The notes under the pieces are model-generated. The model saw only the letters and a list, made by a program, of their open reading frames with translations, was not told the origin of the DNA and searched no databases. Below, piece by piece: positions 8,640 to 59,935 of a stretch of 64,000 bases of DNA (positions are counted from its first letter, which is position 1; every line of letters starts with the position of its first letter). The position numbers and the translations under genes were made by a program. The stretch is from Escherichia virus TH32: the sequence record MT446405.1, one strand, 5' to 3'.

Positions 8640-9278
8640 TTAACGAGTCAATTGTACAATGGTATAAGTGGAAGACTGGACGCTTGGGCCGGAAAGGGCA
8701 ATAGCAGTCGGGTCAATCACGATACCGCCTGGAATGGCAACCATGCCAGTTGGCAGTGAGCCAGTATAGGCGATAATTGCACCGATAGGCAAGTTGTTCG
8801 GGTTGTTACCGCTGGAAATGCCTTTAGGTACATAAGCGAGCAGGTCGCCGTAGTTCAGCGTCTGCGGACTGGTGCTTGGGTTGAATACTTCAACTACGAG
8901 GCCCGTGCACATATCGTAGAACTCGCCTTCGCTATATTGAGGCAGAACCATGCTGGCACCCAAAGGACCAGTAGAGTTGCCATACAGAGCGTAACGCTTG
9001 CTGTTGCCAAGGATGCCATAGTAATTGGTGCCGCCCAGTTCAACTTCAAAGTCCTGCGCGCCCAAGGTTTTGGTCTGGCCAGTACCCATTAATGACACAT
9101 CAGCCTTAAAACCAAACACACGGCTGATGGCGTTTACGTTTGCACCGTCGTTGGCGCTAACGATTCGGCCTGGCTTCCCACGCTGTGGGCCGTCGCGAAC
9201 GATGTCGCCAGGAAAGCCAGTTGTATATTGACGGCCTACACTAGTTTGGAAAGTCATGTTTATTCCCCTTTCAACCAA
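8640..9278 (-). CDS. Hypothetical head protein (possible decoration/accessory)
   Basis: 212-aa ORF between scaffold-like and capsid genes. Confidence 0.4.
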   Translation of the reverse strand: MVERGINMTFQTSVGRQYTTGFPGDIVRDGPQRGKPGRIVSANDGANVNAISRVFGFKADVSLMGTGQTKTLGAQDFEVELGGTNYYGILGNSKRYALYGNSTGPLGASMVLPQYSEGEFYDMCTGLVVEVFNPSTSPQTLNYGDLLAYVPKGISSGNNPNNLPIGAIIAYTGSLPTGMVAIPGGIVIDPTAIALSGPSVQSSTYTIVQLTR

Positions 9279-10681
9279 GCTTCAAATGCTTCGTCAGTTG
9301 CTGCAGAATCCGCAGCGGCCTTTTGTTTTGCGACTACACGCTGTTTTTGACCGTGCTCAACGCCGCGCAGATAATTATCCACCACGTCAAACTCAGCCCC
9401 ATCAACGCACTTCAAGCCTAACTTTTTAGCGCCATATTTCGCTACGGACTTGGAGTCCATAGTTGCATGATCAAAGGCACCAACAACTTTAGACAGGCGC
9501 TGGTAGAGGCTATTCTTACGAGCAGAATCAGCGTAGAAAGCAGCAACTGCTGAATCAGATGCCATTGAGTGTTCCCCTTTTGCTGGACCTGGCGACGCTT
9601 TCGCCGCTTTTGTCGGTTTGTCATCTTTTTCGACCGAAGCCCCCTTTACGTTGCTGTTTTGCAGGCCGCTAACCACATCTTCAGCTTTGTCGCAAGGTGA
9701 TACATCTTCAGCCTTGACTTCAACTTCTTCTTCGTCTTTGACTTCGGCTTCAACTTCTTCTTCATCACCTACCGCGCCACCTTTCAGTTTTGCAATAAGT
9801 GCTTCGATTTGGCTGATCAATTGCGGAAGTTCGCCGCCAGCGTGAGATTCAGCTTCAACTTCAAACTTCTCTTCACCTTCTGGGGTTTCTTCTGCTTCTG
9901 CCTTGACTTCTGGATCAACCATTACTTCTTCACGATTTTCGGTTGAGTCCTTCTCTTCTGCTTTCACTTCAACTTCATCCTGATGAGCAGCTTCAGTACT
10001 CTCTTCGTTCAGAAATTGTTCGAGCGCAGGAATCAGTGATTTCAGCTGTTCAACAGCATTATCACGCGCTTTACCTTTTAACGGTTTTGGCATGTCTAAA
10101 TCCTCGTTGGATGGTGTTACAGTCGTCAAACAAAGATGGTCAAAGCAACGACCATCCAGCACCCGTGCACCTGGTACTCGACCAACGTCCACGAGAGCAA
10201 TGTGGTTGCCGCGAAGAGTTGTCTGCACCACTTCATACGGCTGCCCGTCAAACTCTCCAGACTGTATGATGAATTCACAGTCATAGCCCAAAGACAAGTC
10301 AACCTTTCCAGAATCAATGGCCTTCTTAAGACGACGGCTGAACACTTTAAGGTCGCCGCGCATCCATGGCTTGTCATAATAAACATTGCCAGTCAGAACG
10401 CCATCAACTCCATACTCTTCGGGTGCTGTGTTATCCTCATCACCTTCAAATCCAGAAAGCATTTCGTGATTGTCGATGAAAGGGATATTTTTGAATGAAT
10501 CTATCGCTTCGGGGTCTTTCACCGCTGACTCAGGGCGATAGACTTTTACGATGCGATTCGGATCACCATCAAGACCAACTTGACCAGCAGAATAATCAAA
10601 AATGCCAAATGACGAAATTGGACAACCCATAATCGTCAAGAATCCATTTTTGTCAATTTCGCGTGCCGTTTGCATTCGCAT
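9260..10681 (-). CDS. Scaffold-like protein with acidic low-complexity core (possible prohead protease/scaffold fusion)
   Basis: 473 aa; central run of E/V/K/A repeats (EEEVEAEVKDEEEVEVKAED) typical of scaffolding proteins; sits upstream of the capsid gene. Confidence 0.45.
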   Translation of the reverse strand: MRMQTAREIDKNGFLTIMGCPISSFGIFDYSAGQVGLDGDPNRIVKVYRPESAVKDPEAIDSFKNIPFIDNHEMLSGFEGDEDNTAPEEYGVDGVLTGNVYYDKPWMRGDLKVFSRRLKKAIDSGKVDLSLGYDCEFIIQSGEFDGQPYEVVQTTLRGNHIALVDVGRVPGARVLDGRCFDHLCLTTVTPSNEDLDMPKPLKGKARDNAVEQLKSLIPALEQFLNEESTEAAHQDEVEVKAEEKDSTENREEVMVDPEVKAEAEETPEGEEKFEVEAESHAGGELPQLISQIEALIAKLKGGAVGDEEEVEAEVKDEEEVEVKAEDVSPCDKAEDVVSGLQNSNVKGASVEKDDKPTKAAKASPGPAKGEHSMASDSAVAAFYADSARKNSLYQRLSKVVGAFDHATMDSKSVAKYGAKKLGLKCVDGAEFDVVDNYLRGVEHGQKQRVVAKQKAAADSAATDEAFEAWLKGE

Positions 10682-10779
10682 CCACCCTCAAATAAGTATT
10701 GTGTATTATATCTAATGAAAAAAACTTAGGCAAACAATAATTATGGTTTGAATATGTATAACAACCGATATAGCCGCGC

Positions 10780-11060
10780 CTTTATTAGTGTGATACGGAT
10801 GATACGGATAAAATGAGGCGTATTTTTATCCGTATCGGTGTATAAGCCGCGCTATCACTGGTGTGCTACGGATGATACGGATGATACGGATACTTTTCAT
10901 ATATAAGAGTTTATAAAAAAATAAAATTAAATTAGATATATAATTTTAAATTAATTTATTTGAATTCCTATATAGTACTGCGGCAACGCGTATCATCCGT
11001 ATCATCCGTAAGATTCTTTTGAAAACAACAACTTACTTGATACGGATGATACGTCATTAT
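10780..11060. repeat. Iteron cluster: 9-bp tandem GATACGGAT-type repeats in both orientations flanking an ~85-bp AT-rich spacer
   Basis: tgatacggatgatacggata (10791), ctacggatgatacggatgatacggatac (10866), AT-rich 10895-10975, cgtatcatccgtatcatccgtaagatt (10989), gatacggatgatacg (11039). Same motif family recurs at 26.97-27.3 kb. Confidence 0.7.
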
Positions 11061-11096
11061 ACGTATAAAACTCGCAGCAATCCTTTGCCGATGAAT

Positions 11097-24215: not shown

Positions 24216-24283
24216 AATAATCTCCTAGTTGGTCGGGCGGGTAGCGACCTATTCGCTACCTCATCCCCTCTCGATATAAAACA

Positions 24284-24320
24284 TTATAGTCTTAGTGTAC
24301 GAAGAAGTAAAGCACTTTTT
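24284..24320 (-). promoter_or_regulatory. Conserved promoter of paralog 1 (CTTTACTTCTTCGTACACT ... TATAAT)
   Basis: Minus-sense GTGCTTTACTTCTTCGTACACTAAGACTATAAT followed by the ATATCGAG leader; the same element precedes the other two paralogs. Confidence 0.5.
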
Positions 24321-24323
24321 TCG

Positions 24324-24626
24324 TTATTTTGCGATAAAATATTTATAAGCTTTATCGCCTTCTACGTCGATATACTCGACGATAATTAATGCTTCGCCGC
24401 GAGGCGTAACCGTCTCGATAAGGGTAACGGCTTCGTCGTCGGTCTTCGCGAAGCGGATGGCGCTACGTTCGGCGTATTTAATTTCGTCGAAGGAAAGGCC
24501 GACGAAGGCGACGGCGCGCGCTTTAATAATGCTCGTTTCGAGTTCCGCGTTAACGGCAGCGATAAGAGAGCGAACGGTTAAGCGGTCTTCGTCGTAAGTA
24601 AGGATGGAAGAGATTAAAGTAGTCAT
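24324..24626 (-). CDS. Island paralog family member 2 (about 100 aa), unknown function
   Basis: Track ORF 24324..24683; start placed at the internal Met MTTLISS (RBS GGAG) which aligns with the paralog N-termini; conserved promoter upstream. Confidence 0.5.
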   Translation of the reverse strand: MTTLISSILTYDEDRLTVRSLIAAVNAELETSIIKARAVAFVGLSFDEIKYAERSAIRFAKTDDEAVTLIETVTPRGEALIIVEYIDVEGDKAYKYFIAK

Positions 24627-24683: not shown

Positions 24684-24725
24684 GTATACGCGAGTGTACG
24701 AAGAAGTAAAGAAAAAGATAAAATA
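24684..24725 (-). promoter_or_regulatory. Conserved promoter of paralog 2
   Basis: Minus-sense CTTTACTTCTTCGTACACTcgcgTATACT then tgtttATATCGAGACGGG. Confidence 0.45.
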
Positions 24726-24747
24726 ATTTATCGCATTTTTATCGAAA

Positions 24748-24790
24748 AAGTGCTTTACTTTTTTCTACACTATATTATAATGTACTCATA
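24748..24790 (+). promoter_or_regulatory. Conserved promoter of paralog 3 (divergent from the paralog 2 promoter)
   Basis: GTGCTTTACTTTTTTCTACACTatatTATAAT then gtactcATATCGGGACGGG. Confidence 0.5.
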
Positions 24791-25214: not shown

Positions 25215-25841
25215 ATGGTTAGCTTAAATCGCTTTTCTACTAGCGGCGACGTTATCGCAACTAAGACCGCCGACCTCGTTGCATTTTACAATGCAAATTC
25301 CGGTTCGAAGCCGATTAAAAAGTTCGCTGACCGCCGGACCGCCGAGACTCGCGTAATCGCGCTAATCGAGTCCTTAAACGCGCTCGATGAGCCGTCCAAC
25401 GAATCGCCCATCCCAGACGCGAAGCCGCGCGAGGAAGTGTCCAGCGATGTAAAAACGCACAAGGCGCGTGCGGTCGTTAAAAAGGCCGAGCCGACCCAGG
25501 AAGAACTCGACGCGATGAGCGATGAAGAGTATGAAGCCTTCGTTAAGAGCGGCTTAAACGATAGTGCAAATTGCGTAGTGCAAAATGGAACTCCTTCCCA
25601 TCGCCGTTCGAATAGCGAAGGTATTGCAAAAAGTTGGGATAATAAGGAAGTGGCGCAAAAGCGTCTTACCCGTAACGGCGTTATGGTCGAGGGTGTAGGC
25701 GAGTTCAAATCGGTCCGCGTAGCATTCGCCGCGCTGGGCTTACCGGATAGCAAACACATTCGCTTCCGTATGAAGCTTAAGGAAGCTGGGCGCTTGAACT
25801 TCGAGTTCGGCAACAAGTCCTACACATTCCAGATTATCTAA
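25215..25841 (+). CDS. Hypothetical protein (208 aa)
   Basis: AGGAG RBS; shares the CG-rich codon style of the island; contains two ATAGTGCAAA boxes read as D-S-A-N-C. Confidence 0.45.
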   Translation: MVSLNRFSTSGDVIATKTADLVAFYNANSGSKPIKKFADRRTAETRVIALIESLNALDEPSNESPIPDAKPREEVSSDVKTHKARAVVKKAEPTQEELDAMSDEEYEAFVKSGLNDSANCVVQNGTPSHRRSNSEGIAKSWDNKEVAQKRLTRNGVMVEGVGEFKSVRVAFAALGLPDSKHIRFRMKLKEAGRLNFEFGNKSYTFQII

Positions 25842-25891
25842 TCGAATGGCGGCCCTTCGGGGTCGCTTTTCATAGTGCAAATTGGTGGCTT

Positions 25892-26155
25892 ATGAATACG
25901 CTTATTCTCATCGCTACGTTGTCCATCGGAAGTGGTCGCACCTTATCCCTTTACGACCATAGTGCAAATTGCGCTTACCCTACGCGCGTTGCGGCAATAG
26001 TTAATAGTGCAAATCGAATGCTATTCGAAACTTGTTGGCGGGTCGATAACGAGAAAGGGCGCATCGTCTTAGGTTATAGTGCGAATCTGCTGGTGGAGTC
26101 GTTCGATTGGACGGTTGAAGGTCGTAAATTGTTACGTAAGGTGACTAAAAGATGA
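25892..26155 (+). CDS. Questionable ORF overlapping the ATAGTGCAAAT boxes
   Basis: 87-aa ORF whose frame reads the boxes as xSAN; no convincing RBS; may be non-coding. Confidence 0.25.
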   Translation: MNTLILIATLSIGSGRTLSLYDHSANCAYPTRVAAIVNSANRMLFETCWRVDNEKGRIVLGYSANLLVESFDWTVEGRKLLRKVTKR

Positions 26156-26269
26156 CTTATAATAATACACTTTCTAACGCGTTTATGGTTGTAACCTTCC
26201 CCGTCGTATTACCGATGGCCCTAGAAGTGGAGAAAATGTGTTCTAGGGCCGTTTTATAGTGCAAATTGG

Positions 26270-26758
26270 CTAGTGGCGGGAGAATTGCTCGCCTTCTTTG
26301 GCCGCCTCTCCGAAATCCTTGTAGAAATCGTCCATGGAACGGCCCATTTTACTATTGCCGTTTTCATCAATCATCGTGATGCCGTAGATGATATTCAGTT
26401 CACGAATAGCATTAAGTTTGGCTGACGCCGCGACTTCTGGATCACGCACAAGCTTGACCAAATTGTGAATTGCACCTTTTACGCTCCACAAATCCTTGAG
26501 TGGCATCTCTTCCATACGCTTTTTGAAGCGCATTTTGTAGTATGGGTTGCGTTGCGCGCAAAGGATTCGCTGGCCAGTGTAGCTATCCGTTGCAACTTCC
26601 ATTCCAAATACTAGTGCAAAAGCTGCGCGCATGTCATGGCCCTGAATAACAAGGTCAATGAACTCATCGAATAAAGCCTGATTGTGCTCTGCAAATCGCG
26701 GGTCTTCAAAGTCTTCAGGCATCGCTACATAATCTTGACTCATAGTGCAAAATCCCAT
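26270..26758 (-). CDS. Hypothetical protein (162 aa)
   Basis: Minus-strand ORF with typical phage codon style; start region coincides with the ATAGTGCAAAT boxes, so the true start may be the second Met (MSQDY, at 26743). Confidence 0.45.
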   Translation of the reverse strand: MGFCTMSQDYVAMPEDFEDPRFAEHNQALFDEFIDLVIQGHDMRAAFALVFGMEVATDSYTGQRILCAQRNPYYKMRFKKRMEEMPLKDLWSVKGAIHNLVKLVRDPEVAASAKLNAIRELNIIYGITMIDENGNSKMGRSMDDFYKDFGEAAKEGEQFSRH

Positions 26759-26969
26759 AGTGCAAATTAATAGTGTGAATTATACAATGGATGGACATTA
26801 TATTCAAGTGCAGATTGATGTTCATTATGGCTATAAACGTACACAAATCACAGTGCTGAATGGATAACGGACCGTGGTGCGTGGTGTACTGTTTGATACG
26901 TATAAAAGAAATCCATCCCTTTTGCCGCTTGTTATGCAAATCAATGACTTAGCCGCTGCTGGCTGGTCG

Positions 26970-27300
26970 AAGCGTATCATGACGTATCATCCGTATTGCC
27001 GCAAGTCTTTGTTTTTACTTATATCTTACGGATAATACGTTAAATATATAAATTAACATAAGTATGAGGATGTAGAAAAAAATTAATTTAAATGATTTTA
27101 AAATGGAGTTAATTAATTTTTCAAATTATATATATAACGATGCCCAGTTTTATCCGTATCATCCGTAAGATTAATGTACAAGCCAGGCGCGGCAAGGGCT
27201 GTACACTGATACGGATAAAAAACCATGACGTATCATGACGTAAGGGTGTACCAATTTGGAAAGGATGAATCCAGGAACGGCGCGGCCTGTAGCCATGATA
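26970..27300. repeat. Second iteron/AT-rich region, homologous to 10780..11060
   Basis: cgtatcatgacgtatcatccgta (26975), AT-rich 27040-27140, ttatccgtatcatccgtaagatt (27149; near-identical to 10989-11015), gatacggataaaaa (27208), catgacgtatcatgacgta (27226). Confidence 0.7.
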
Positions 27301-27581
27301 CGCTTAATTTTTAACCGTATTTTAGGCGTATCAAATGTGTTCAAACACCAAGTTTCACGACACTAAAATTTCAATCCATAGACAATTCCTAACAAACACC
27401 ACGGACTAATAGATACGCCCTATAAAATATATTTCTAAATATTTCCGCACAATCAATAAATAAAACACAACCTCATAATCATTCCATCGCAAAACACGAC
27501 CCAAACAACAAAAGGCCGCATAAAGCGACCCATTGCACACATTCCATTCTTCAAAACACGTAAACAGTGTTCGTTTATTCA

Positions 27582-28118
27582 CTATATCTTAGGCATTAAT
27601 CCCTTTTCAGTTCTCCTTTTTATTTCTTCTTTTATCATTTTATTGGTGACTTTATAGCCAATCCTCTCCAATTCCAGCAGCACTTCGTTTTGGTATTTTT
27701 TTATCTTCACAATATCGACTGTATCCCTCCAATAAGAAAATACCTTCTGAATTACTGCTTCATCCATTTTATATCTTGCTGTCGTCCTGTATTTCGATTT
27801 GAAGATATAATTGATTGCATCAGTCTTTAACCATTCGCTTCTCAACTCAGGGTGATCATCCCAAAGAGCTATGGCAAACTCTTGCGGGCTTTTACATCTT
27901 TTTCTAAGCTCCTTTATGTAATCAGTTATGCTGGTTTTGTCACAAAAACGTTTGCGGCAAACTTTGCATTCTTCCTTGAGTAACCATTCAGCCTTATTAC
28001 TTTGCGACGCTGATTCATTATCCCTTCTGTACCTGCCGCATATACTTATTCCTTCATTATCCAAGAAGTAATGCAAGTCTTTAGAATACTTAGCTTTACG
28101 CCAAAAGCCGCCCATCAA
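27582..28118 (-). CDS. Hypothetical Cys-rich protein (178 aa)
   Basis: Last gene of the minus-strand early cluster; several Cys pairs (CKVCRKRFC, RKRCKSP). Confidence 0.45.
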   Translation of the reverse strand: MMGGFWRKAKYSKDLHYFLDNEGISICGRYRRDNESASQSNKAEWLLKEECKVCRKRFCDKTSITDYIKELRKRCKSPQEFAIALWDDHPELRSEWLKTDAINYIFKSKYRTTARYKMDEAVIQKVFSYWRDTVDIVKIKKYQNEVLLELERIGYKVTNKMIKEEIKRRTEKGLMPKI

Positions 28119-30331: not shown

Positions 30332-30693
30332 AACTCACCCTCTTTAAATATGAAGCCGCTGATTATGGATTGGTAGTAAGTTACGCCTTGCAACTCTACC
30401 GCCTTGCAGCGATGAGCTTGGCCCTTGTATTCTATCCACCAAACCTCCAGGTCAGGCAAATTGTCGCGACGTGTCAGCCATCCATGAAACAACTCGTATG
30501 TCTCACCGATTTTGAACGGCTTAAACACGCCGTTATAAGATTCATTCAACGCTACGCAGACGACATCATGGCTGTCCATCCAAACGCAGTCATGAAATAA
30601 TCCGCTTCTGCCAAACCTTTCGTCGTAACTCATAATCAATTCTCCTTTGCTTGATGAATTAAGTATAATACAGACAGATAAAAAGGCAAGCAC
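30328..30693 (-). CDS. Hypothetical protein
   Basis: 121-aa ORF with AAGGAG RBS directly downstream of a terminator-promoter unit. Confidence 0.45.
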   Translation of the reverse strand: MLAFLSVCIILNSSSKGELIMSYDERFGRSGLFHDCVWMDSHDVVCVALNESYNGVFKPFKIGETYELFHGWLTRRDNLPDLEVWWIEYKGQAHRCKAVELQGVTYYQSIISGFIFKEGEL

Positions 30694-30703
30694 TTAGCTC
30701 ACC
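30677..30703 (-). terminator. Intrinsic terminator (stem with G-U pairs) followed by a promoter -10
   Basis: RNA sense GGUGAGC-UAAGU-GCUUGCC + UUUUU; next to TATTATACT -10; near-identical copy at 31939..31965. Confidence 0.5.
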
Positions 30704-30711
30704 TTTTTGAA

Positions 30712-31938: not shown

Positions 31939-31965
31939 AAAGAAAAGGCAAGCATTTAGCTCACC
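31939..31965 (-). terminator. Intrinsic terminator (second copy of the GGUGAGC/GCUUGCC unit)
   Basis: RNA sense GGUGAGC-UAAAU-GCUUGCC + UUUUCUUUU, followed by TTATACT. Confidence 0.5.
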
Positions 31966-31975
31966 TTTTTGATAT

Positions 31976-34466: not shown

Positions 34467-35114
34467 TTATCCTGTGGCCTGCATATTGCGTACATACTTC
34501 TGCTCTAATGAATAGATGAAGTCGGCGACAGTCAATCCCTTCGTGTGCCATTCATACATGGTGAAGCCTGTATTCAGGAAATAGCCGCGCACCTTGTCCA
34601 TCGCTTCAGCTTCCTCCATTGAAGCCATCAGCGCCGCGACATTGTCATAAGAAGGCACAAATCCCTTCTTGCGTAGCGCATTGCGCAAATCCTTAGTTCG
34701 GAATCCAATCTTGCAGGGGTCATCACGACCCGTGGATGATGCGACCTTTGGAAGAGCAAGGAACTCTTTAAGGAACATTGCAATGTTCAAGTCGCCTGCG
34801 TCATCAAGCTTCTGGATTCGGTTGCGACCGCGACCCTTGAATTCACTCGCACGAGGGTGAGAGCCAAAACAGTGCGCCCCTTCCAGTTTAGGGTCAATGA
34901 TCATTACATCTTTCCCAATGCGCAACTCTACGTAGTAAAGATAAGACTCATCGACAAGCTTTGTGCGCTTGCAAGTGATTGAGTCCTTATCATAACCAAA
35001 GCCACGCAACACGGTTGAAATCATCCGGTTCATTTCTTCGCCGTGAACATCACTTTCTTTGTTCAGTTCACCAAGATGTTGAAAGAATTTAGCGATGTTG
35101 ATTGCTTTATTCAT
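34467..35114 (-). CDS. Hypothetical protein (215 aa)
   Basis: Coupled (ATGA) to the primase-helicase gene. Confidence 0.45.
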   Translation of the reverse strand: MNKAINIAKFFQHLGELNKESDVHGEEMNRMISTVLRGFGYDKDSITCKRTKLVDESYLYYVELRIGKDVMIIDPKLEGAHCFGSHPRASEFKGRGRNRIQKLDDAGDLNIAMFLKEFLALPKVASSTGRDDPCKIGFRTKDLRNALRKKGFVPSYDNVAALMASMEEAEAMDKVRGYFLNTGFTMYEWHTKGLTVADFIYSLEQKYVRNMQATG

Positions 35115-36784
35115 CAGAATTCATCCTTATCTCTTCCCAAAGAACGTTTACGCTCAATAACCTTCTTCAAGAATTCAATATCTTCAGGGTCAGACTCATC
35201 GCGGATAAGATACGCTAAGATGGTCATCAAATCAGAAATGTATTCTCCTGCTTCATTCTTAATCAGCGGCGTAAAGTAACCGCGCTGGTTGCGATAGGTT
35301 GCAGGCTCAAAACCAAGCTTCGACATATGCGGCGCAAGGGTACGAGAGAAAGGCGACTTGCCGCACTTCGCTCTGAATCCCATAGCAATAGCACCACTGG
35401 TGATGTGCCAGCGTCCGCTGTGATGTCGGTCATAAGGCGCGGTGATGACGACTTCAACAAGGTCGTTGTCCACCATCTCATCACGAATAACGCCGCGCGC
35501 ACGTTCCATTTCGTTCTTACTAAACTCAGTAAGCATGCGAGATGTTTCACCAACAAACGCGTTGTAACCTGCTTCGCCGTGTTTTTCCATCCACGCAGCA
35601 CACTCAGCCATCAACTGCCAAACGTCTTCTTTCAAAGTGGAAAGGTCAGCTTGGAAATCTTTCGACCAGTTCGGTTGCCCGTCCTTGTCAGCGAGTTGGC
35701 CAACAAAGATAGGGTACACACGACGGTTGCCCGTGTCGTCACGCTGCATGCCTGCGTATTCGTTGCCGTCCATGATCGCAATCCACTGGCGTGGTTTAAC
35801 CTGAGTATCTTCAAATTTGAAGTCCAGGTCATCTTCCGTCTTAGTCAGGAATGCTTTCATGTTTTCGATGTCGGCCTTTTTAAAGCCTGTCATCTCGCCA
35901 ACGTTCGCGATAATTGAGCGACCCGTAATAGCTCGCAAGAACGGGTTGAAGTTCTGCGCGGCTAAGTTCAACGGAATCGGTGTTGCGTGGCGGTCGTTCA
36001 TAATAGCTTCGCAAAGCAGCTTGCTAAAATAACTTTTCCCTGCGTTCTGGCCGCCGATGAGCGCGATAGAAATTGGCGCTTGACAGCCAGGGTTGGTCAG
36101 GCGGTTATAGAGCGATAGCCAAAAATACACACCGATTTGTCGGTTTAACTCTGTATCGAACGGTCGGAATAGCTCGATAAGGTATTTCTCGATGCGCGCA
36201 GTACCGTCCCATTCAGGCAGCTTCTTGTAGAAGAAGTCCATCAGGTCGTCGCGCTGATAACGCATGGCCCATTCCTTATAGGATTGAGCGACCTGACGTG
36301 AGTTTGGGTTAGACAGCCCTGCTGCGTCGACAGCGGCAACTATCTCTGTGACTTCCAAGGTACGGTCAGTGAATGTTTCGCCGCGATGGTCGACTAAGCG
36401 CCCACGAAAAGTATCTTTGTGAGGGAATGGAACAATGCCACTTCCCTTATCAAACAACGCGTCGAAAACCGCATAACGGTTCATGTCACTCGTCCGGTCT
36501 GCCTGTAGAACGAAGTCATCTTTGGTAGGCTTGTAGTGAGGGAACTTGATTACCTGAAGTGAGGCGAGCAAGCGTGCTCTTTCAACCAAGTCTTCTTCAC
36601 CGTAGCATTCCATGCGCTCTGAATCTTTTTCAACAGCTTTATGTTGAAGGCTGATTTTAGCTCTGGTGCCTTGCTGCTCTGCTGCCTGCATTTCTTCCGA
36701 AACGCCTGCATCTTGAATTTCGTCAAAGATTGCACCAAATTCATCACCTGTATCCTCTGGAAGATTGTCATTATTAATTGACAT
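35114..36784 (-). CDS. Primase-helicase, SF3 type (P4/D5-like C-terminal ATPase)
   Basis: 556 aa; Walker A IALIGGQNAGKSYF in the C-terminal half with an N-terminal domain of primase-associated size. Confidence 0.6.
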   Translation of the reverse strand: MSINNDNLPEDTGDEFGAIFDEIQDAGVSEEMQAAEQQGTRAKISLQHKAVEKDSERMECYGEEDLVERARLLASLQVIKFPHYKPTKDDFVLQADRTSDMNRYAVFDALFDKGSGIVPFPHKDTFRGRLVDHRGETFTDRTLEVTEIVAAVDAAGLSNPNSRQVAQSYKEWAMRYQRDDLMDFFYKKLPEWDGTARIEKYLIELFRPFDTELNRQIGVYFWLSLYNRLTNPGCQAPISIALIGGQNAGKSYFSKLLCEAIMNDRHATPIPLNLAAQNFNPFLRAITGRSIIANVGEMTGFKKADIENMKAFLTKTEDDLDFKFEDTQVKPRQWIAIMDGNEYAGMQRDDTGNRRVYPIFVGQLADKDGQPNWSKDFQADLSTLKEDVWQLMAECAAWMEKHGEAGYNAFVGETSRMLTEFSKNEMERARGVIRDEMVDNDLVEVVITAPYDRHHSGRWHITSGAIAMGFRAKCGKSPFSRTLAPHMSKLGFEPATYRNQRGYFTPLIKNEAGEYISDLMTILAYLIRDESDPEDIEFLKKVIERKRSLGRDKDEF

Positions 36785-38093: not shown

Positions 38094-39176
38094 CTATTTT
38101 ATGCCACCTGCACGACGATTTATCATGTCAAGTTGATTCTCAATATAAGGCATGACGATTGCTTCAACAAAAGCAGTCCAACCTTTCTTGCCTTCCCCTT
38201 TCCGGTGACAGTCGTGGGCGCAACCGAACACAAACTCATGTTCTGCACCAGGGATAGGGCCGCGAAAGTAAGCGCCATACGGGTCGCCGTTGGTGTGTTC
38301 TTCACCCCAAGGACAGATTATGCGGCACTTGCCTGACATATTCTCGATGACGTCGCCATCAGACCCTTCACCCATCTTGTTGCGCGCTAGAATTTGCTGG
38401 GCTATTTTATACCAAACAGCATCATACTTGTATTCATCGACGTCAATTTGAATCTCACGCTTTTGCGGCATGACGACGTGAAAGCCAAATGCCTGACAAA
38501 TGTCTTCGATGGTGTAGCGCAAGGAGTAGTCTGCATGGACAAGTCGGCAGCGGAACGGGTTGCCGTTCTCATCGACATATTTATAGGGGCCGTCGTGAGT
38601 CACACGCTTGTTGTTGATGCACCCAGGAACACGGCCCACGCGCGTTACGTCTTTAATCGTGTTGTCGCCGCCCTTCTTGAGTACCATGTTTACGAAAGAC
38701 CCAAGGAATGCTTTGAACTGAATAAGATGGTCAATCGGTTCTTTAAAGAAGTACCAAAGCTGGTGGTTGTTCGGTGAAGTCTCGACGATGACAGTCGGCT
38801 TCAGTCGCTCAAAAAAGAATTCCAAATCTAAATCGCCTTTGGACCCTTTACCGTGACCGATGTCGTCGACCATCATCGCCATGCCGTGACCAAAGGCCGA
38901 CTCTGTACGCCAGTATCGCATCTCACCCGTCTTTGGGTTGGGAGACTTACGCATTGAACTGATGCACGCATAGCCGTTTTGGTGCTGCATGAGCGGCTTG
39001 CCCAGCTTCCAAGGCTTAGGCCAAAAGCTACTGTTAATCTTCTTGCCGCGCTCATCGGTCTGCACCGTTGCTTCAGGCGCAAACACCGTCATGACGCGTT
39101 CATCTTCTGGAATGCCTCTTTGGAGTTCTGTTAAAAACTCTTCGATTATTTTTGCTTCTTCTCTTAAACTAGCCAT
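38094..39176 (-). CDS. Primase-polymerase (prim-pol)-like replication initiation protein
   Basis: 360 aa; acidic catalytic-looking blocks MMVDDIGHG and PTVIVETSPNNHQLWYFF plus a C-terminal Cys/His cluster (CPWGEEH ... CAHDCH); first gene of the minus-strand early operon. Confidence 0.45.
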   Translation of the reverse strand: MASLREEAKIIEEFLTELQRGIPEDERVMTVFAPEATVQTDERGKKINSSFWPKPWKLGKPLMQHQNGYACISSMRKSPNPKTGEMRYWRTESAFGHGMAMMVDDIGHGKGSKGDLDLEFFFERLKPTVIVETSPNNHQLWYFFKEPIDHLIQFKAFLGSFVNMVLKKGGDNTIKDVTRVGRVPGCINNKRVTHDGPYKYVDENGNPFRCRLVHADYSLRYTIEDICQAFGFHVVMPQKREIQIDVDEYKYDAVWYKIAQQILARNKMGEGSDGDVIENMSGKCRIICPWGEEHTNGDPYGAYFRGPIPGAEHEFVFGCAHDCHRKGEGKKGWTAFVEAIVMPYIENQLDMINRRAGGIK

Positions 39177-57437: not shown

Positions 57438-58082
57438 TTACATAACTGCTAGTGCATCCTTGTAACGCTTCCGTCGCAAATCCCCATGGTTAGCCGTATT
57501 CGGCGCGGCCCCGTTAATCCGCTTAACAGTCGAATCAAATGCACCCGCATCGGCAAGAGGAATACAGCCGCTATTCTTAAAGAACCATGCCGCGCTGTCA
57601 GCGATGTATTTTGGTTCAGTCAGAATATCAGGATTGTTCAATGCGTCATAGCCTGATTGCTTTGAATAATCTGCATAGTTATCCTTTCCAGTCAGCTGAA
57701 TGGCACCACGGCCACGGTACTTCCAACCGTCTCCCGATGCTACCGAACCGTTGCCCATGCGGTTTGCATATGTATTATTGGCGATTTCCATTGGTTTACG
57801 GGCAATCGACAATGCCAAGGAGTTGGGTGCACCGCCGAAACGACCGCTGGCGCTGTAACGGCTAGGCCATGTATTAGCAAGACCTTGAGCGGAATAATTC
57901 AAGTTTTCCACAAATGTCTTCAGACTGCCTGTTTCCACTCCTACGTTTGCAAGCAACGCCGCGATGGCGTTCTTGCTTTTGATTCCGTAGTGCTCACAAG
58001 CCTTCTTGAAAGGGTCCACCCATTTCTCTGCGACATCCATGCTGCATCCGGTCCCTTTAGATATTACGTTTGCATTAATCAT
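57438..58082 (-). CDS. Endolysin, glycoside hydrolase family 19 (chitinase-like lysozyme)
   Basis: GH19-type catalytic region including YRGRGAIQLTGKDNY and upstream E-rich catalytic segment. Confidence 0.65.
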   Translation of the reverse strand: MINANVISKGTGCSMDVAEKWVDPFKKACEHYGIKSKNAIAALLANVGVETGSLKTFVENLNYSAQGLANTWPSRYSASGRFGGAPNSLALSIARKPMEIANNTYANRMGNGSVASGDGWKYRGRGAIQLTGKDNYADYSKQSGYDALNNPDILTEPKYIADSAAWFFKNSGCIPLADAGAFDSTVKRINGAAPNTANHGDLRRKRYKDALAVM

Positions 58083-58090
58083 AAATCACC

Positions 58091-59935
58091 TTATGCGCTT
58101 CTGTACCAGCCGTTCAAGACGACATATCGCGGCAGGGTTGAGACAGCCGTTGGAACAGACTGCCCTGCGTTGCCAGTGTTACCGACCACATCGTGAGTGT
58201 GAGCGGGAAGGGTATAGCTATGGCTGTGATTGCCAGCGTAATTTATATTCAACCCATGGGTGTGTGACCCAGAAGATTGGATATTGTGGACGTGGTTGCC
58301 GTTAGTCGAGGTGTTGTATTTGTAGTTATCCCAGTCGCCGCCCTTTCGACTGCCGAAGTTGTTGTGCGTATTGTCATACACGCCATACCGCGCATCATTC
58401 GTATTCGCCTCACCCCAGCTACTGTCATGGTGGTGGTTGCCTGCCGAATCCATTCCGTGCACGTGAGCACCGTTTTGACTGGTATCGCCTGTGTGGTTAT
58501 GGCTGCCCGCATCTCCAGTGGTATTTGACCATGGACCGCTTTGTCGCGTAGTAATGTTCACGCTGTGATTGTGCAGAGGAAGCATGGCGGCGGTAAGGGT
58601 GACGGAGTCCGCGCCGCCAGTGGCAAGACCGTTTCGTGCCGTGCCGGATGTTCTGATGACCATGTTATCAGGCAATCTGGTCCACACCTGTCCATAAGCG
58701 CCAAGCTTGGTGTTTGGGTTGGTGCCATTAGTCAAGAATCGAGTCTCACCGACTTCGAATACATCACCCATAGTGATCAACTTAGAAGCCAAATCATCGA
58801 GTTGACGCTTTGTCACAAACTGTTGCGGCTCACTAGCATCAACACCGATTTGCGCCGCGCCGAATGCTTGAAGAAGACGCCAGACTGTTCCGTCATAAAT
58901 AATGGTGAAAGGCAGCAGACCGACGATGGACCCTGCTGGCAACTCGCCGCCGTCGAATCCAAGGACGGCAACCTTGTTTGCACCAATGGTCACGGTGACA
59001 GGCCCAGTGGTCGTGACATCATTGACGATGGTCAGGCGACTACCTGCTGACGGAGGCCATGAATAACCTGCTGGAACGGTAAGGATTATATCTTGTGCGC
59101 CTTTACCTGATGCAAGATTCGGCGTTCCAATTTGCACGTCTTGAACAGTAGCATTTTGAATCCAGGCACTCCAAGCACCAGAAGTATAAGAGCGGGTGAA
59201 AACATATCCGTTCATTGACGTGTATTGTTGCAGGGCGAAAGTCTGCGCATCAACCTGCCAAGCGCAAACCTGGAGGCGACCTGCAGCCTTCGTCGCACCA
59301 ACCGCGTTCGGGATGTTAGAGCAGAGAGCGGCAACGGCGTCAGATTGAATGACAATAGTTGTGGAAGTCGTGATATTATCAAAGTCCACAAAGTTTGAAA
59401 TCAGTCCGCGAACAAAATACGGGTTTTGCGCATCGCCGCCAGCAGGCATAGGAATATACTTTCGCGCTTCGCTAGGCAGCGTTAATTCCTGCCAAGATTC
59501 CGTTTCGCCGTTGGCTGGTACGGCGCTGGTGTTGCCGTCAACCACGCTCTGGAAAATGCGCCACTCAGGCGCTGAAGGAGTTCCAGAGTTGCTTACCACG
59601 ATGGCGTTTTTCGGGTATCCATCTGGCTTCAAGTCAGACGAGAAATACTGTTGAGCGCCGTGGTCCTGGATGAACATCAGGTTGTCGGTGATCAGATTCA
59701 ACAACCAGTTCATCGACTCACGTTCAACCGCTTTCGCGGCGACGTTTCCAGCTTCCAGAGCAAGTGCATAGTCAGGGGTGTAGCCGCGCTGGAAGTTCAC
59801 ATAACCGCTTGGGCTTGCATCCGGCACCACGGATACATCACCGCTTTGCGCGAAAGGTCTGTTAATAAGTGTTGGCATTGCCGTTCCTCTACACGATGTA
59901 TTTAATTTTTGATAAAAGGGTCGATGCCCAATCAC
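58091..59935 (-). CDS. Tail fibre protein with C-terminal HxH repeat (metal-binding) domain
   Basis: C-terminal HNHSVNI ... HNHTGDT ... HVHGMDSAGNHHHDSSW ... HVHNIQSSGSHTHGL ... HSHSYTLPAHTHDV: repeated His-x-His motifs as in T4-type long/short fibre tips. Confidence 0.6.
   Translation of the reverse strand: MIGHRPFYQKLNTSCRGTAMPTLINRPFAQSGDVSVVPDASPSGYVNFQRGYTPDYALALEAGNVAAKAVERESMNWLLNLITDNLMFIQDHGAQQYFSSDLKPDGYPKNAIVVSNSGTPSAPEWRIFQSVVDGNTSAVPANGETESWQELTLPSEARKYIPMPAGGDAQNPYFVRGLISNFVDFDNITTSTTIVIQSDAVAALCSNIPNAVGATKAAGRLQVCAWQVDAQTFALQQYTSMNGYVFTRSYTSGAWSAWIQNATVQDVQIGTPNLASGKGAQDIILTVPAGYSWPPSAGSRLTIVNDVTTTGPVTVTIGANKVAVLGFDGGELPAGSIVGLLPFTIIYDGTVWRLLQAFGAAQIGVDASEPQQFVTKRQLDDLASKLITMGDVFEVGETRFLTNGTNPNTKLGAYGQVWTRLPDNMVIRTSGTARNGLATGGADSVTLTAAMLPLHNHSVNITTRQSGPWSNTTGDAGSHNHTGDTSQNGAHVHGMDSAGNHHHDSSWGEANTNDARYGVYDNTHNNFGSRKGGDWDNYKYNTSTNGNHVHNIQSSGSHTHGLNINYAGNHSHSYTLPAHTHDVVGNTGNAGQSVPTAVSTLPRYVVLNGWYRSA

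Follow-up and report, generated by a model that had tools for sequence, protein, structure and literature searches.

Analysis of a 64,000-nucleotide stretch of DNA from Escherichia virus TH32 (MT446405.1; the whole stretch is referred to here as the window) revealed two related non-coding elements, one at 10.8 kb (region 1, 10.77-11.07 kb) and one at 27 kb (region 2, 26.97-27.30 kb). Judging from its sequence and from the genome ends of related phages, region 2, which lies upstream of the small terminase subunit gene terS, is the packaging-start (pac) and left-terminus site of this phage. Region 1 is probably an uncut second binding site located before the head-gene operon. Taken as a whole, the explanation that region 2 is the pac site, that the repeat arrays are read by one protein, and that region 1 is an uncut twin is considered probable.

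The phage is a Wifcevirus, a PB1-like myophage of E. coli whose relatives have genomes of 66 to 72 kb, and the plus strand of the window corresponds to the bottom strand of the phage. Twenty-eight phage records match the region with 89 to 95% identity (26 Escherichia phages, one Shigella phage, and one Wifcevirus record), the closest being EC150 at 94.8%. The terS gene (26270-26758, minus strand) was recognized by a PDB sequence search, in which its product matched entry 7UXE, deposited as "Small terminase" (E = 6e-34), and the annotation of phage Mansfield agrees with this assignment.

Genome ends of related phages map to the AT-rich spacer of region 2

The ends of several Wifcevirus genomes coincide in region 2. 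Position 1 of Mansfield, which is a direct terminal repeat (DTR) boundary determined by PhageTerm, maps to position 27104 of the window, and the start of the WFC record maps to the same base. The WFC record carries the repeat at both ends; its length is ∼3.7 kb according to the authors of the record and 3,784 bp as measured from the record itself. The terS coordinates in SP13, WFH, and ECP_WGS_SA1 (346-831 or 349-831) give the same register as in Mansfield and WFC, and the match to ECO71P1 ends one base before the end of that record. The cut position is thus placed ∼330 to 345 bp upstream of terS. On the phage strand it would fall at TTAACTCC/ATTTTAAAA (slash, predicted cut), with the packaged DNA beginning at 27104 and heading to lower window coordinates. 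The word at the cut site, TTAACTCCATTTT, is conserved in six genomes and occurs a single time in the window; it is absent from region 1 even when three mismatches are allowed. The odds of an end falling by chance into either of the two 100-bp AT stretches described below in a genome of 68 kb are ∼0.3%.

The homologous locus also holds genome ends in other genera. The record of phage Kyle opens 357 bp before terS, and the PhageTerm boundary of MyoSmar lies 387 bp before terS. A good example is the Pbunavirus JG024, in which 36 of 161 long reads were reported to begin at position 59,376, with a matching pac fragment on a gel. This base aligns exactly with position 1 of Ab27, and four more Pbunavirus records (Pa193, TH15, fHoPae01, and PaP1_EPu-2019) open at the same base. 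The predicted pac site of SCUT-S1 was likewise described as lying "in an AT-rich region." Because ends map to the spacer in Wifcevirus and to the same position in other genera, region 2 is assigned as the packaging-start and terminus site. A site of this sort is of a known kind, as papers on relatives already place pac in an AT-rich region. The first-pass annotation of the window had called the 27-kb element origin-like. The anatomy that it described is present, at the coordinates it gave or a few bases away, but the best reading is a different one, since the AT spacer holds a physical genome end upstream of terS.

On the minus strand, the terminal repeat has its right boundary at ∼23351 by comparison with WFC and at ∼23432 by comparison with Mansfield. 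The direct repeats GGAATTTGCGGTACACT and GGAAATTTGCAGTACACT flank this boundary, and after them comes a CCTGCGCGGCAGG palindrome bearing the CGCGGCA core also found at the pac site.

Repeat architecture of the two elements

The features of region 2 are as follows.

26972-26997 (minus strand): outer repeat block on the terminal-repeat side, AATACGGATGATACGTCATGATACGC on the phage strand, invariant in six genomes
27023-27039 (plus strand): terminal-repeat-side arm ATCTTACGGATAATACG, inverted relative to 27150-27172
27039-27138: AT-rich spacer (≥85% AT), the proposed terminase cut zone
27104/27105 (minus strand): predicted left physical end and left boundary of the DTR, by homology with the ends of relatives
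27150-27172 (minus strand): unique-side arm of two 9-bp units, TTATCCGTATCATCCGTAAGATT (ATCTTACGGATGATACGGAT on the phage strand), kept in three haplotypes despite diverged flanks
27183-27203 (plus strand): GC-rich element, copy 1, CCAGGCGCGGCAAGGGCTGTA, with the core CGCGGCA/TGCCGCG
27208-27245: outer repeat block on the unique side, GATACGGAT and two 10-bp units, ATGACGTATC and ATGACGTAAG
27271-27291 (plus strand): GC-rich element, copy 2, CCAGGAACGGCGCGGCCTGTA

Region 1 is built in a similar way.

10772-10836: outer repeats on the protease side, AGCCGCGC, GATACGGATGATACGGAT, and TTATCCGTATC
10866-11015: core, consisting of an arm (10866-10893), an AT spacer (∼10894-10988), and an inverted arm (10989-11015)
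11039-11068 (plus strand): outer repeats on the portal side, GATACGGATGATACGTCATTATACGTATAA

Several observations set these two loci apart from the rest of the window. First, stretches of at least 85% AT over 80 bp occur just twice in the 64 kb, at 10875-10983 and 27039-27138, and the complete genome of Bas99 likewise contains exactly two. Second, both AT stretches are flanked by inverted arrays of TACGGAT-type units of 9 to 10 bp, TACGGATGA/TACGTCATGA. The arms of region 2 are 17 bp long, inverted with one mismatch, and spaced ∼100 nt apart, and those of region 1 are 22 nt long, 100% complementary, and 100 nt apart; the iteron-AT-rich-iteron layout that the first-pass annotation had proposed for both loci is thus borne out. 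Third, the repeats are concentrated at these loci: 14 of the 20 TACGGAT copies in the window fall inside regions 1 and 2, and the nine matches to the 16-mer GATACGGATGATACGG (up to three mismatches; 0.26 expected) all lie at 10.79-11.05 or 26.98-27.17 kb. The shared element claimed earlier was also recovered, the arm at 27150-27172 and that at 10989-11015 belonging to a 26-nt family with 92% identity, and the outer block at 26972-26997 is 96% complementary to 11040-11063 of region 1. Finally, both of the GC-rich CCAGG..CTGTA copies reported in region 2 were found, with zero chance matches expected.

The two regions align colinearly in the same orientation, with partly similar spacers, and are therefore direct paralogues. 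Comparison among Wifceviruses, in sequence alignments, argues that both are genuine paralogues under selection. Region 1 is nearly 100% conserved in five genomes in which the flanking genes differ by ∼5%. On the unique side of the region 2 cut, Wifceviruses split into three strongly divergent haplotypes (the window with WFC, EC150, and Eco4M-7; Mansfield with ECML-117; and Bas99). The TACGGATGATACGGAT arm, the ATGACGTA units, the GCCGCG(A/C)CTGG element, and the cut word are retained in all three, and equivalents of the units at 27208-27245 are retained by the two other haplotypes. Both elements are therefore conserved in related phages.

A single match to the integration host factor (IHF) consensus, AATCAATGACTTA (26939-26951, plus strand), was found within either element, out of six in the window. 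The sequence around it is invariant in six genomes and belongs to the terminal-repeat side, the match itself being ∼155 to 165 bp away from the cut.

The repeats of both loci change in step between lineages

The paired arrangement is found beyond Wifcevirus. Kyle, MyoSmar, and Ab27 each have a non-coding region of 420 to 650 bp upstream of the prohead protease gene that is paralogous to their own pac region. The repeat shared by the two loci differs from one lineage to the next, as seen in the copy numbers below (expected counts were derived from the rest of each sequence).

Wifcevirus, 7-mer ATCCGTA: 14 copies in the two loci, 0.07 expected
Kyle, 7-mer AATAACC: 10 copies in the two loci, 0 expected
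Ab27, 7-mer CAAATTA (TAATTTGG): 9 copies in the two loci, 0 expected
MyoSmar, 7-mer AAAAGTA: 10 copies in the two loci, 0.14 expected

Four uncultured lineages from IMG/VR follow the same pattern with TATCCGAT, GTTGCGG, TACCGGG, and CTATACCGG, the coding-DNA controls being near zero, so that in at least eight lineages the two loci share lineage-specific repeats. All genera have the CGCGGCA/TGCCGCG motif, which is inverted about the spacer; MyoSmar, Ab27, Kyle, and the metagenomic lineages carry its core on the same side of the cut as Wifcevirus does. No repeats shared between the loci were detected in XcP1 and FoX6 (Carpasinavirus) or in two metagenomic lineages, which means that the twin architecture is widespread, not universal. 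Since both loci change their repeats in step, one co-evolving protein most likely reads both. The earlier suggestion of paired sites for a single protein is therefore well supported by the lineage-specific repeats.

Region 1 is provisionally treated as uncut, and none of the Wifcevirus records listed by the search opens there. Two record ends that could mark a second cut were kept only as hints. An IMG/VR Wifcevirus contig ends at the arm that is common to both loci, where a repeat-caused assembly break is the most likely reason. Position 1 of the E215 record (NC_042080.1) lies within the AT spacer of the region 1 homologue; by visual alignment of the two Ab27 paralogues, the paralogous counterpart of the pac cut is ∼16 nt away. 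This genome was deposited as a single unpolished SPAdes contig.

Candidate reader of the arrays and a model for the cut

The leading candidate for the protein that reads the arrays is TerS. It is a natural candidate because it is encoded beside the site, because a homologue forms a decameric ring, and because its putative recognition helix is comparatively variable. The cryo-electron microscopy structure of the decameric TerS of Pbunavirus E217 is listed in a review, which also describes pac sites of the SPP1 type as having contacts that flank the cut. In the sequences compared, the N-terminal half of TerS has several comparatively variable stretches, and the putative helix-turn-helix recognition helix is one of them.

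In the proposed mechanism, the terminase would cut the replicated concatemer inside the ∼100-bp AT spacer, between 27105 and 27104. Packaging would then proceed towards terS, and 27104 would become the left end of a direct terminal repeat of ∼3.7 kb. The inverted arrays on both sides of the spacer would be the recognition sites, and the GC-rich CGCGGCA/TGCCGCG elements may contribute to recognition. A ring-shaped TerS, as the most likely reader, could hold both arms so that the bendable AT spacer is presented to the nuclease. Region 1, which does not contain the cut-site word, would be read by the same protein. Candidate roles for it are the pairing of two terminase-bound sites or the coupling of head-gene expression to packaging.

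In two IMG/VR sequences, 3300044693_000257 and 3300047322_000627, the small terminase has an N-terminal extension of 25 to 45 residues, and the regions upstream of terS and of the protease gene have no common lineage-specific repeats. These two could serve as a natural test of an association between the TerS N terminus and the arrays.

Composition switch, terminator-like hairpin, and Chi sites around the proposed cut

Two further features lie between region 2 and the early genes.

27340-27570: non-coding G-poor tract separating the early operon from the pac element; A+C-rich on the plus strand of the window, G+T-rich on the coding strand of the phage
27503-27531 (minus strand): intrinsic-terminator-like hairpin (27531-27513) followed by a T-run, directly after the last early open reading frame (ORF)

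The near absence of G that had been reported for the tract was evident from the counts: there are 19 G in 231 nt, and the five 230-nt windows with the lowest G content in the 64 kb are all located here. The GUGUUUUG word (CAAAACAC on the plus strand), described previously as repeated in the GU-rich strand, does occur twice in the tract (27490 and 27552), but with three copies in the window it is not above chance. The hairpin at 27503-27531 is terminator-like in sequence and is probably the terminator of the early operon; equivalent terminators are present in JG024/Ab27 and in the two other Wifcevirus haplotypes. As it stands directly after the last early ORF, most of the G-poor tract would lie beyond the transcript end. 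A search of 26500-27900 against Rfam (E values up to 1) gave no match, and hence the tract is not a known RNA.

The composition of the tract is part of a wider pattern. The Wifcevirus haplotypes differ in the sequence of the tract, those aligned being G+T-rich by eye, and the upstream flank of WFC is strongly positive. In eight of 10 lineages the 300-nt flank upstream of the pac spacer is G+T-rich, and in seven the interval 100 to 500 nt downstream is A+C-rich; seven of the 10 show the switch at both flanks. The consequence of this mirror bias is that the strand ending 3′ at the cut is G+T-rich on either side. Region 1 shows no such keto/amino switch. With low confidence, the mirror-image strand bias centered on the cut may be taken as a trace of what happens to the cut ends. 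They could be exposed as single strands and undergo cytosine deamination, or recombinases could prefer G+T-rich tails; selection against transcripts that cross the cut site is also possible.

Immediately inside the left end there is a cluster of Chi octamers (GCTGGTGG). All of them are oriented for RecBCD entering at that end, and the strand carrying them is the one with its 3′ terminus there. An extreme example was found in Kyle, with nine Chi sites in the first 2 kb, compared to four in MyoSmar and an expectation of ∼0.03 per 2 kb per strand. In each Wifcevirus checked, a single Chi site is conserved ∼1008 bp in (26089-26096 of the window, plus strand). This clustering and orientation fits 27104 being a genuine free DNA end and suggests that the left end, whether incoming or cut, is equipped to engage RecBCD/RecA. 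The G+T-rich tract itself was considered as a Chi array and rejected, as there is no Chi inside it.

Alternative explanations

A number of points weigh against the assignment of region 2 as a pac site read by TerS together with an uncut twin. First, the cut position in this isolate is placed by homology, via the ends of relatives, and the right DTR boundary differs by 81 bp between WFC and Mansfield. Second, the E215 record opens in the spacer of its region 1 homologue, so that region 1 may sometimes be an end. Third, according to a review, the TerS of E217 shows no appreciable DNA binding in vitro, and a comparison of TerS recognition-helix residues with the repeat motifs in 13 lineages gave no clear code, relatedness being a confounder. 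Fourth, no function is established for a second TerS site, and the model is to that extent ad hoc. Finally, the co-variation would have a simpler explanation in a replication initiator acting at two origins. Genes for a VapE-like helicase and a RepB-type primase are present in the window, and in the Pbunavirus Ab27 and in MyoSmar the primase/helicase gene adjoins the element directly upstream.

The last of these points leads to the strongest rival, namely that the elements are two replication origins, or an origin with a cis-acting partner, at which an initiator binds the iterons, melts the AT spacer, and starts replication. The VapE-like helicase with the RepB-type primase would be the obvious candidate for the initiator. 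The packaging cut would then be secondary; for instance, the terminase could exploit an easily opened region, or duplication of the terminal repeat could need local synthesis. The presence of iterons and an AT-rich segment at both loci is classic origin anatomy, and the co-variation of two loci is what one initiator serving two sites predicts. Distant paired iteron sites or inverted priming sites have precedents in SPP1 oriL/oriR, P4 ori/crr, and RSF1010 oriV. One paper also states that the AT-rich pac region of a Pbunavirus "could be a replication origin."

Several results weigh against replication from these sites. The DnaA box TTWTNCACA has no match in either element and one in the window, at 57904, and TTATCCGTA differs from it at two positions; a DnaA-dependent origin is therefore rejected. 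The GC skew follows gene orientation and is unchanged at 10.9 kb, within co-oriented genes, its cumulative minimum lying at 39.5 kb, and published skew minima of Pbunaviruses fall in the replication module, away from these elements. At region 2 the keto/amino switch runs the opposite way from that of a bidirectional origin, and no switch is seen at region 1. Skew is, however, a weak criterion for origins in phages. In addition, the helicase gene is ∼8 kb away in the window, and the coincidence of a cut within the spacer across four genera requires an additional assumption if the elements are origins. For the dual-origin claim in the first-pass annotation, the iteron/AT anatomy is upheld and candidate initiators are encoded, but neither DnaA boxes nor a skew of origin polarity was observed. 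Dual origins thus remain a live rival that is less well supported than the pac assignment and, on balance, rather unlikely.

A second alternative is transcriptional control, in which a regulator bound to the arrays would switch the terS and head-gene promoters, with the AT spacers serving as promoters or UP-like elements. Both elements do lie upstream of sigma-70-like promoters, of terS and of the protease/scaffold/capsid genes, respectively.

27095-27124 (minus strand): sigma-70-like promoter TTGAAA-18-TAAAAT in the AT spacer, overlapping the cut
26779-26807 (minus strand): proximal sigma-70-like promoter of terS, TTGAAT-17-TATAAT, counterpart of the mapped start P041 of phage 14-1
10705-10733 (minus strand): sigma-70-like promoter of the protease/scaffold/capsid genes, TTGCCT-17-TATAAT, counterpart of the mapped start P014 of phage 14-1

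In the Pbunavirus 14-1, the AT spacer of pac contains the mapped start P040, whose −35 and −10 sequences have the TAATTTGG repeats between them, and the authors of the JG024 study predicted a sigma-70 promoter in the AT spacer of the region 1 homologue. The 14-1 map has no start in the AT spacer of the region 1 homologue, only the proximal P014. It is therefore unlikely that region 1 serves regulation only, and regulation would be at most secondary for region 2. Moreover, the distances between array and promoter are unequal at the two loci (∼90 to 310 compared to ∼200 to 370 bp), other late operons have no such element, there being two clusters per genome only, and the cut inside the spacer would be left unexplained. 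This alternative is considered very improbable.

The suggestion that the elements are sites of site-specific recombination or inversion bracketing the 11-27 kb segment is scarcely credible: similar elements do lie 16.3 kb apart, but the copies are direct to each other, not inverted, the segment carries terS, terL, and portal genes, no retrieved Wifcevirus record has it deleted or inverted (the loci match the same strand in all records listed), and no recombinase was found in the complete Bas99 annotation or in the inspected stretches of other relatives.

Relation to known systems

The pac assignment invites comparison with well-studied packaging sites. In SPP1 (pacL-pacC-pacR) and in P1, whose pac contains hexamer clusters, short repeats likewise lie on both sides of a central cut near the small terminase gene. 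The likeness to headful pac sites extends to function in the Pbunavirus homologue, which acts as pac according to the long-read starts and the pac fragment. Unlike the permuted series of SPP1 and P1, the site in Wifcevirus, Kyle, and MyoSmar is the fixed boundary of a direct terminal repeat of 3.6 to 3.8 kb; the Wifcevirus spacer also differs in being ∼100 bp long and at least 85% AT, and TerS binding is putative here. There are no GATC sites in either element, which excludes Dam control of the P1 type. Neither SPP1 nor P1 is known to have a second full copy of pac at another place in its genome.

The closest counterpart is the Pbunavirus pac region (JG024 position 59,376; SCUT-S1), which is the homologous locus: it lies upstream of terS, has an AT-rich center with short repeats and CGCGGCA motifs, and has a paralogue upstream of the protease gene. 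The repeat is TAATTTGG in Pbunavirus and TACGGAT in Wifcevirus. Pbunaviruses are reported to be circularly permuted headful packagers.

Iteron origins with distant partners (SPP1, P4, and RSF1010) resemble the present elements in having iterons with an AT segment in two distant copies, which in Wifcevirus would likewise be bound by one protein. They differ in that one Wifcevirus copy is a packaging cut site, with no DnaA boxes and no skew of the origin type. Phage T7 has direct terminal repeats with short repeat arrays and with promoter- and origin-like features at the repeat boundary. Its terminase and small terminase subunit are unrelated, however, its repeat is 160 bp compared to 3.7 kb here, and it has no second copy.

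Two related sites are also a feature of the twin-ring pac synapsis model of T4, in which TerS rings are proposed to bind two pac-like sequences, one in gene 16 and one in gene 19. The likeness of Wifcevirus to this model is that two related sequences lie a few to tens of kb apart. The review cited above calls the T4 model unproven, adding that it "may be limited to T4," and notes that the C-terminal helix of E217 TerS has been proposed to stack rings. By extension, PB1-like myophages (Pbunavirus, Wifcevirus, Kylevirus, Myosmarvirus, and uncultured lineages) might use two-site control of packaging, with TerS or a partner occupying both pac and the uncut twin and stacked rings bridging them. This idea is speculative and in its full form appears unlikely. 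If it were true, packaging would be licensed only on replicated concatemers or coupled to the supply of proheads, this would be the first sequence-defined natural case of pac synapsis outside T4, and the mirror G+T/A+C composition together with the Chi clusters would mark the cut ends as recombination substrates.

No published description was found of the repeat architecture, of the co-varying twin before the head genes, or of the mirror composition switch, and these appear to be undescribed. The exact cut site and its arms matter for the rebooting and engineering of such phages, as DTR phages need correct ends, and they bear on transduction risk and on packaging-competent vectors. For the study of DNA recognition by small terminases such as that of E217, for which a structure exists, the arrays offer a concrete, testable substrate and supply at least eight natural specificity variants. 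Should the twin prove to be a second site for the terminase, a tractable E. coli phage would allow a direct test of the long-debated two-site synapsis model.

Neighboring genes and other repeats

Other genes referred to above are listed here. A Pfam search of eight ORFs around region 2, terS included, found no families.

27582-28118 (minus strand): last early ORF before the G-poor tract
9260-10681 (minus strand): prohead protease gene, at the head of the protease/scaffold/major capsid operon
35114-36784: VapE-like helicase (PF05272)
38094-39176: RepB-type primase (PF16793)

The terminal repeat contains additional repeated sequences. The word ATAGTGCAAA(T/A) is present in five copies within 1.2 kb of the terminal repeat, all on the plus strand (25571-25588, 25868-25885, 26252-26269, and 26745-26775), two of which cover the start codon of terS; a small regulator of the genes in the terminal repeat may use this word as its operator. 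An inverted repeat with arms of 75 nt that are 71% complementary (24293-24367 and 24698-24772) has 330 nt between its arms and is accompanied by the direct repeats CCC(C/G)TCTCGATATAAA at 24265 and 24665. In the early-gene region, a 30-nt direct repeat, AAAAGGCAAGCA(C/T)TTAGCTCACCTTTTTGA, occurs at 30681-30710 and 31943-31972, 1.26 kb apart and with 97% identity, and looks like a pair of terminator hairpins.

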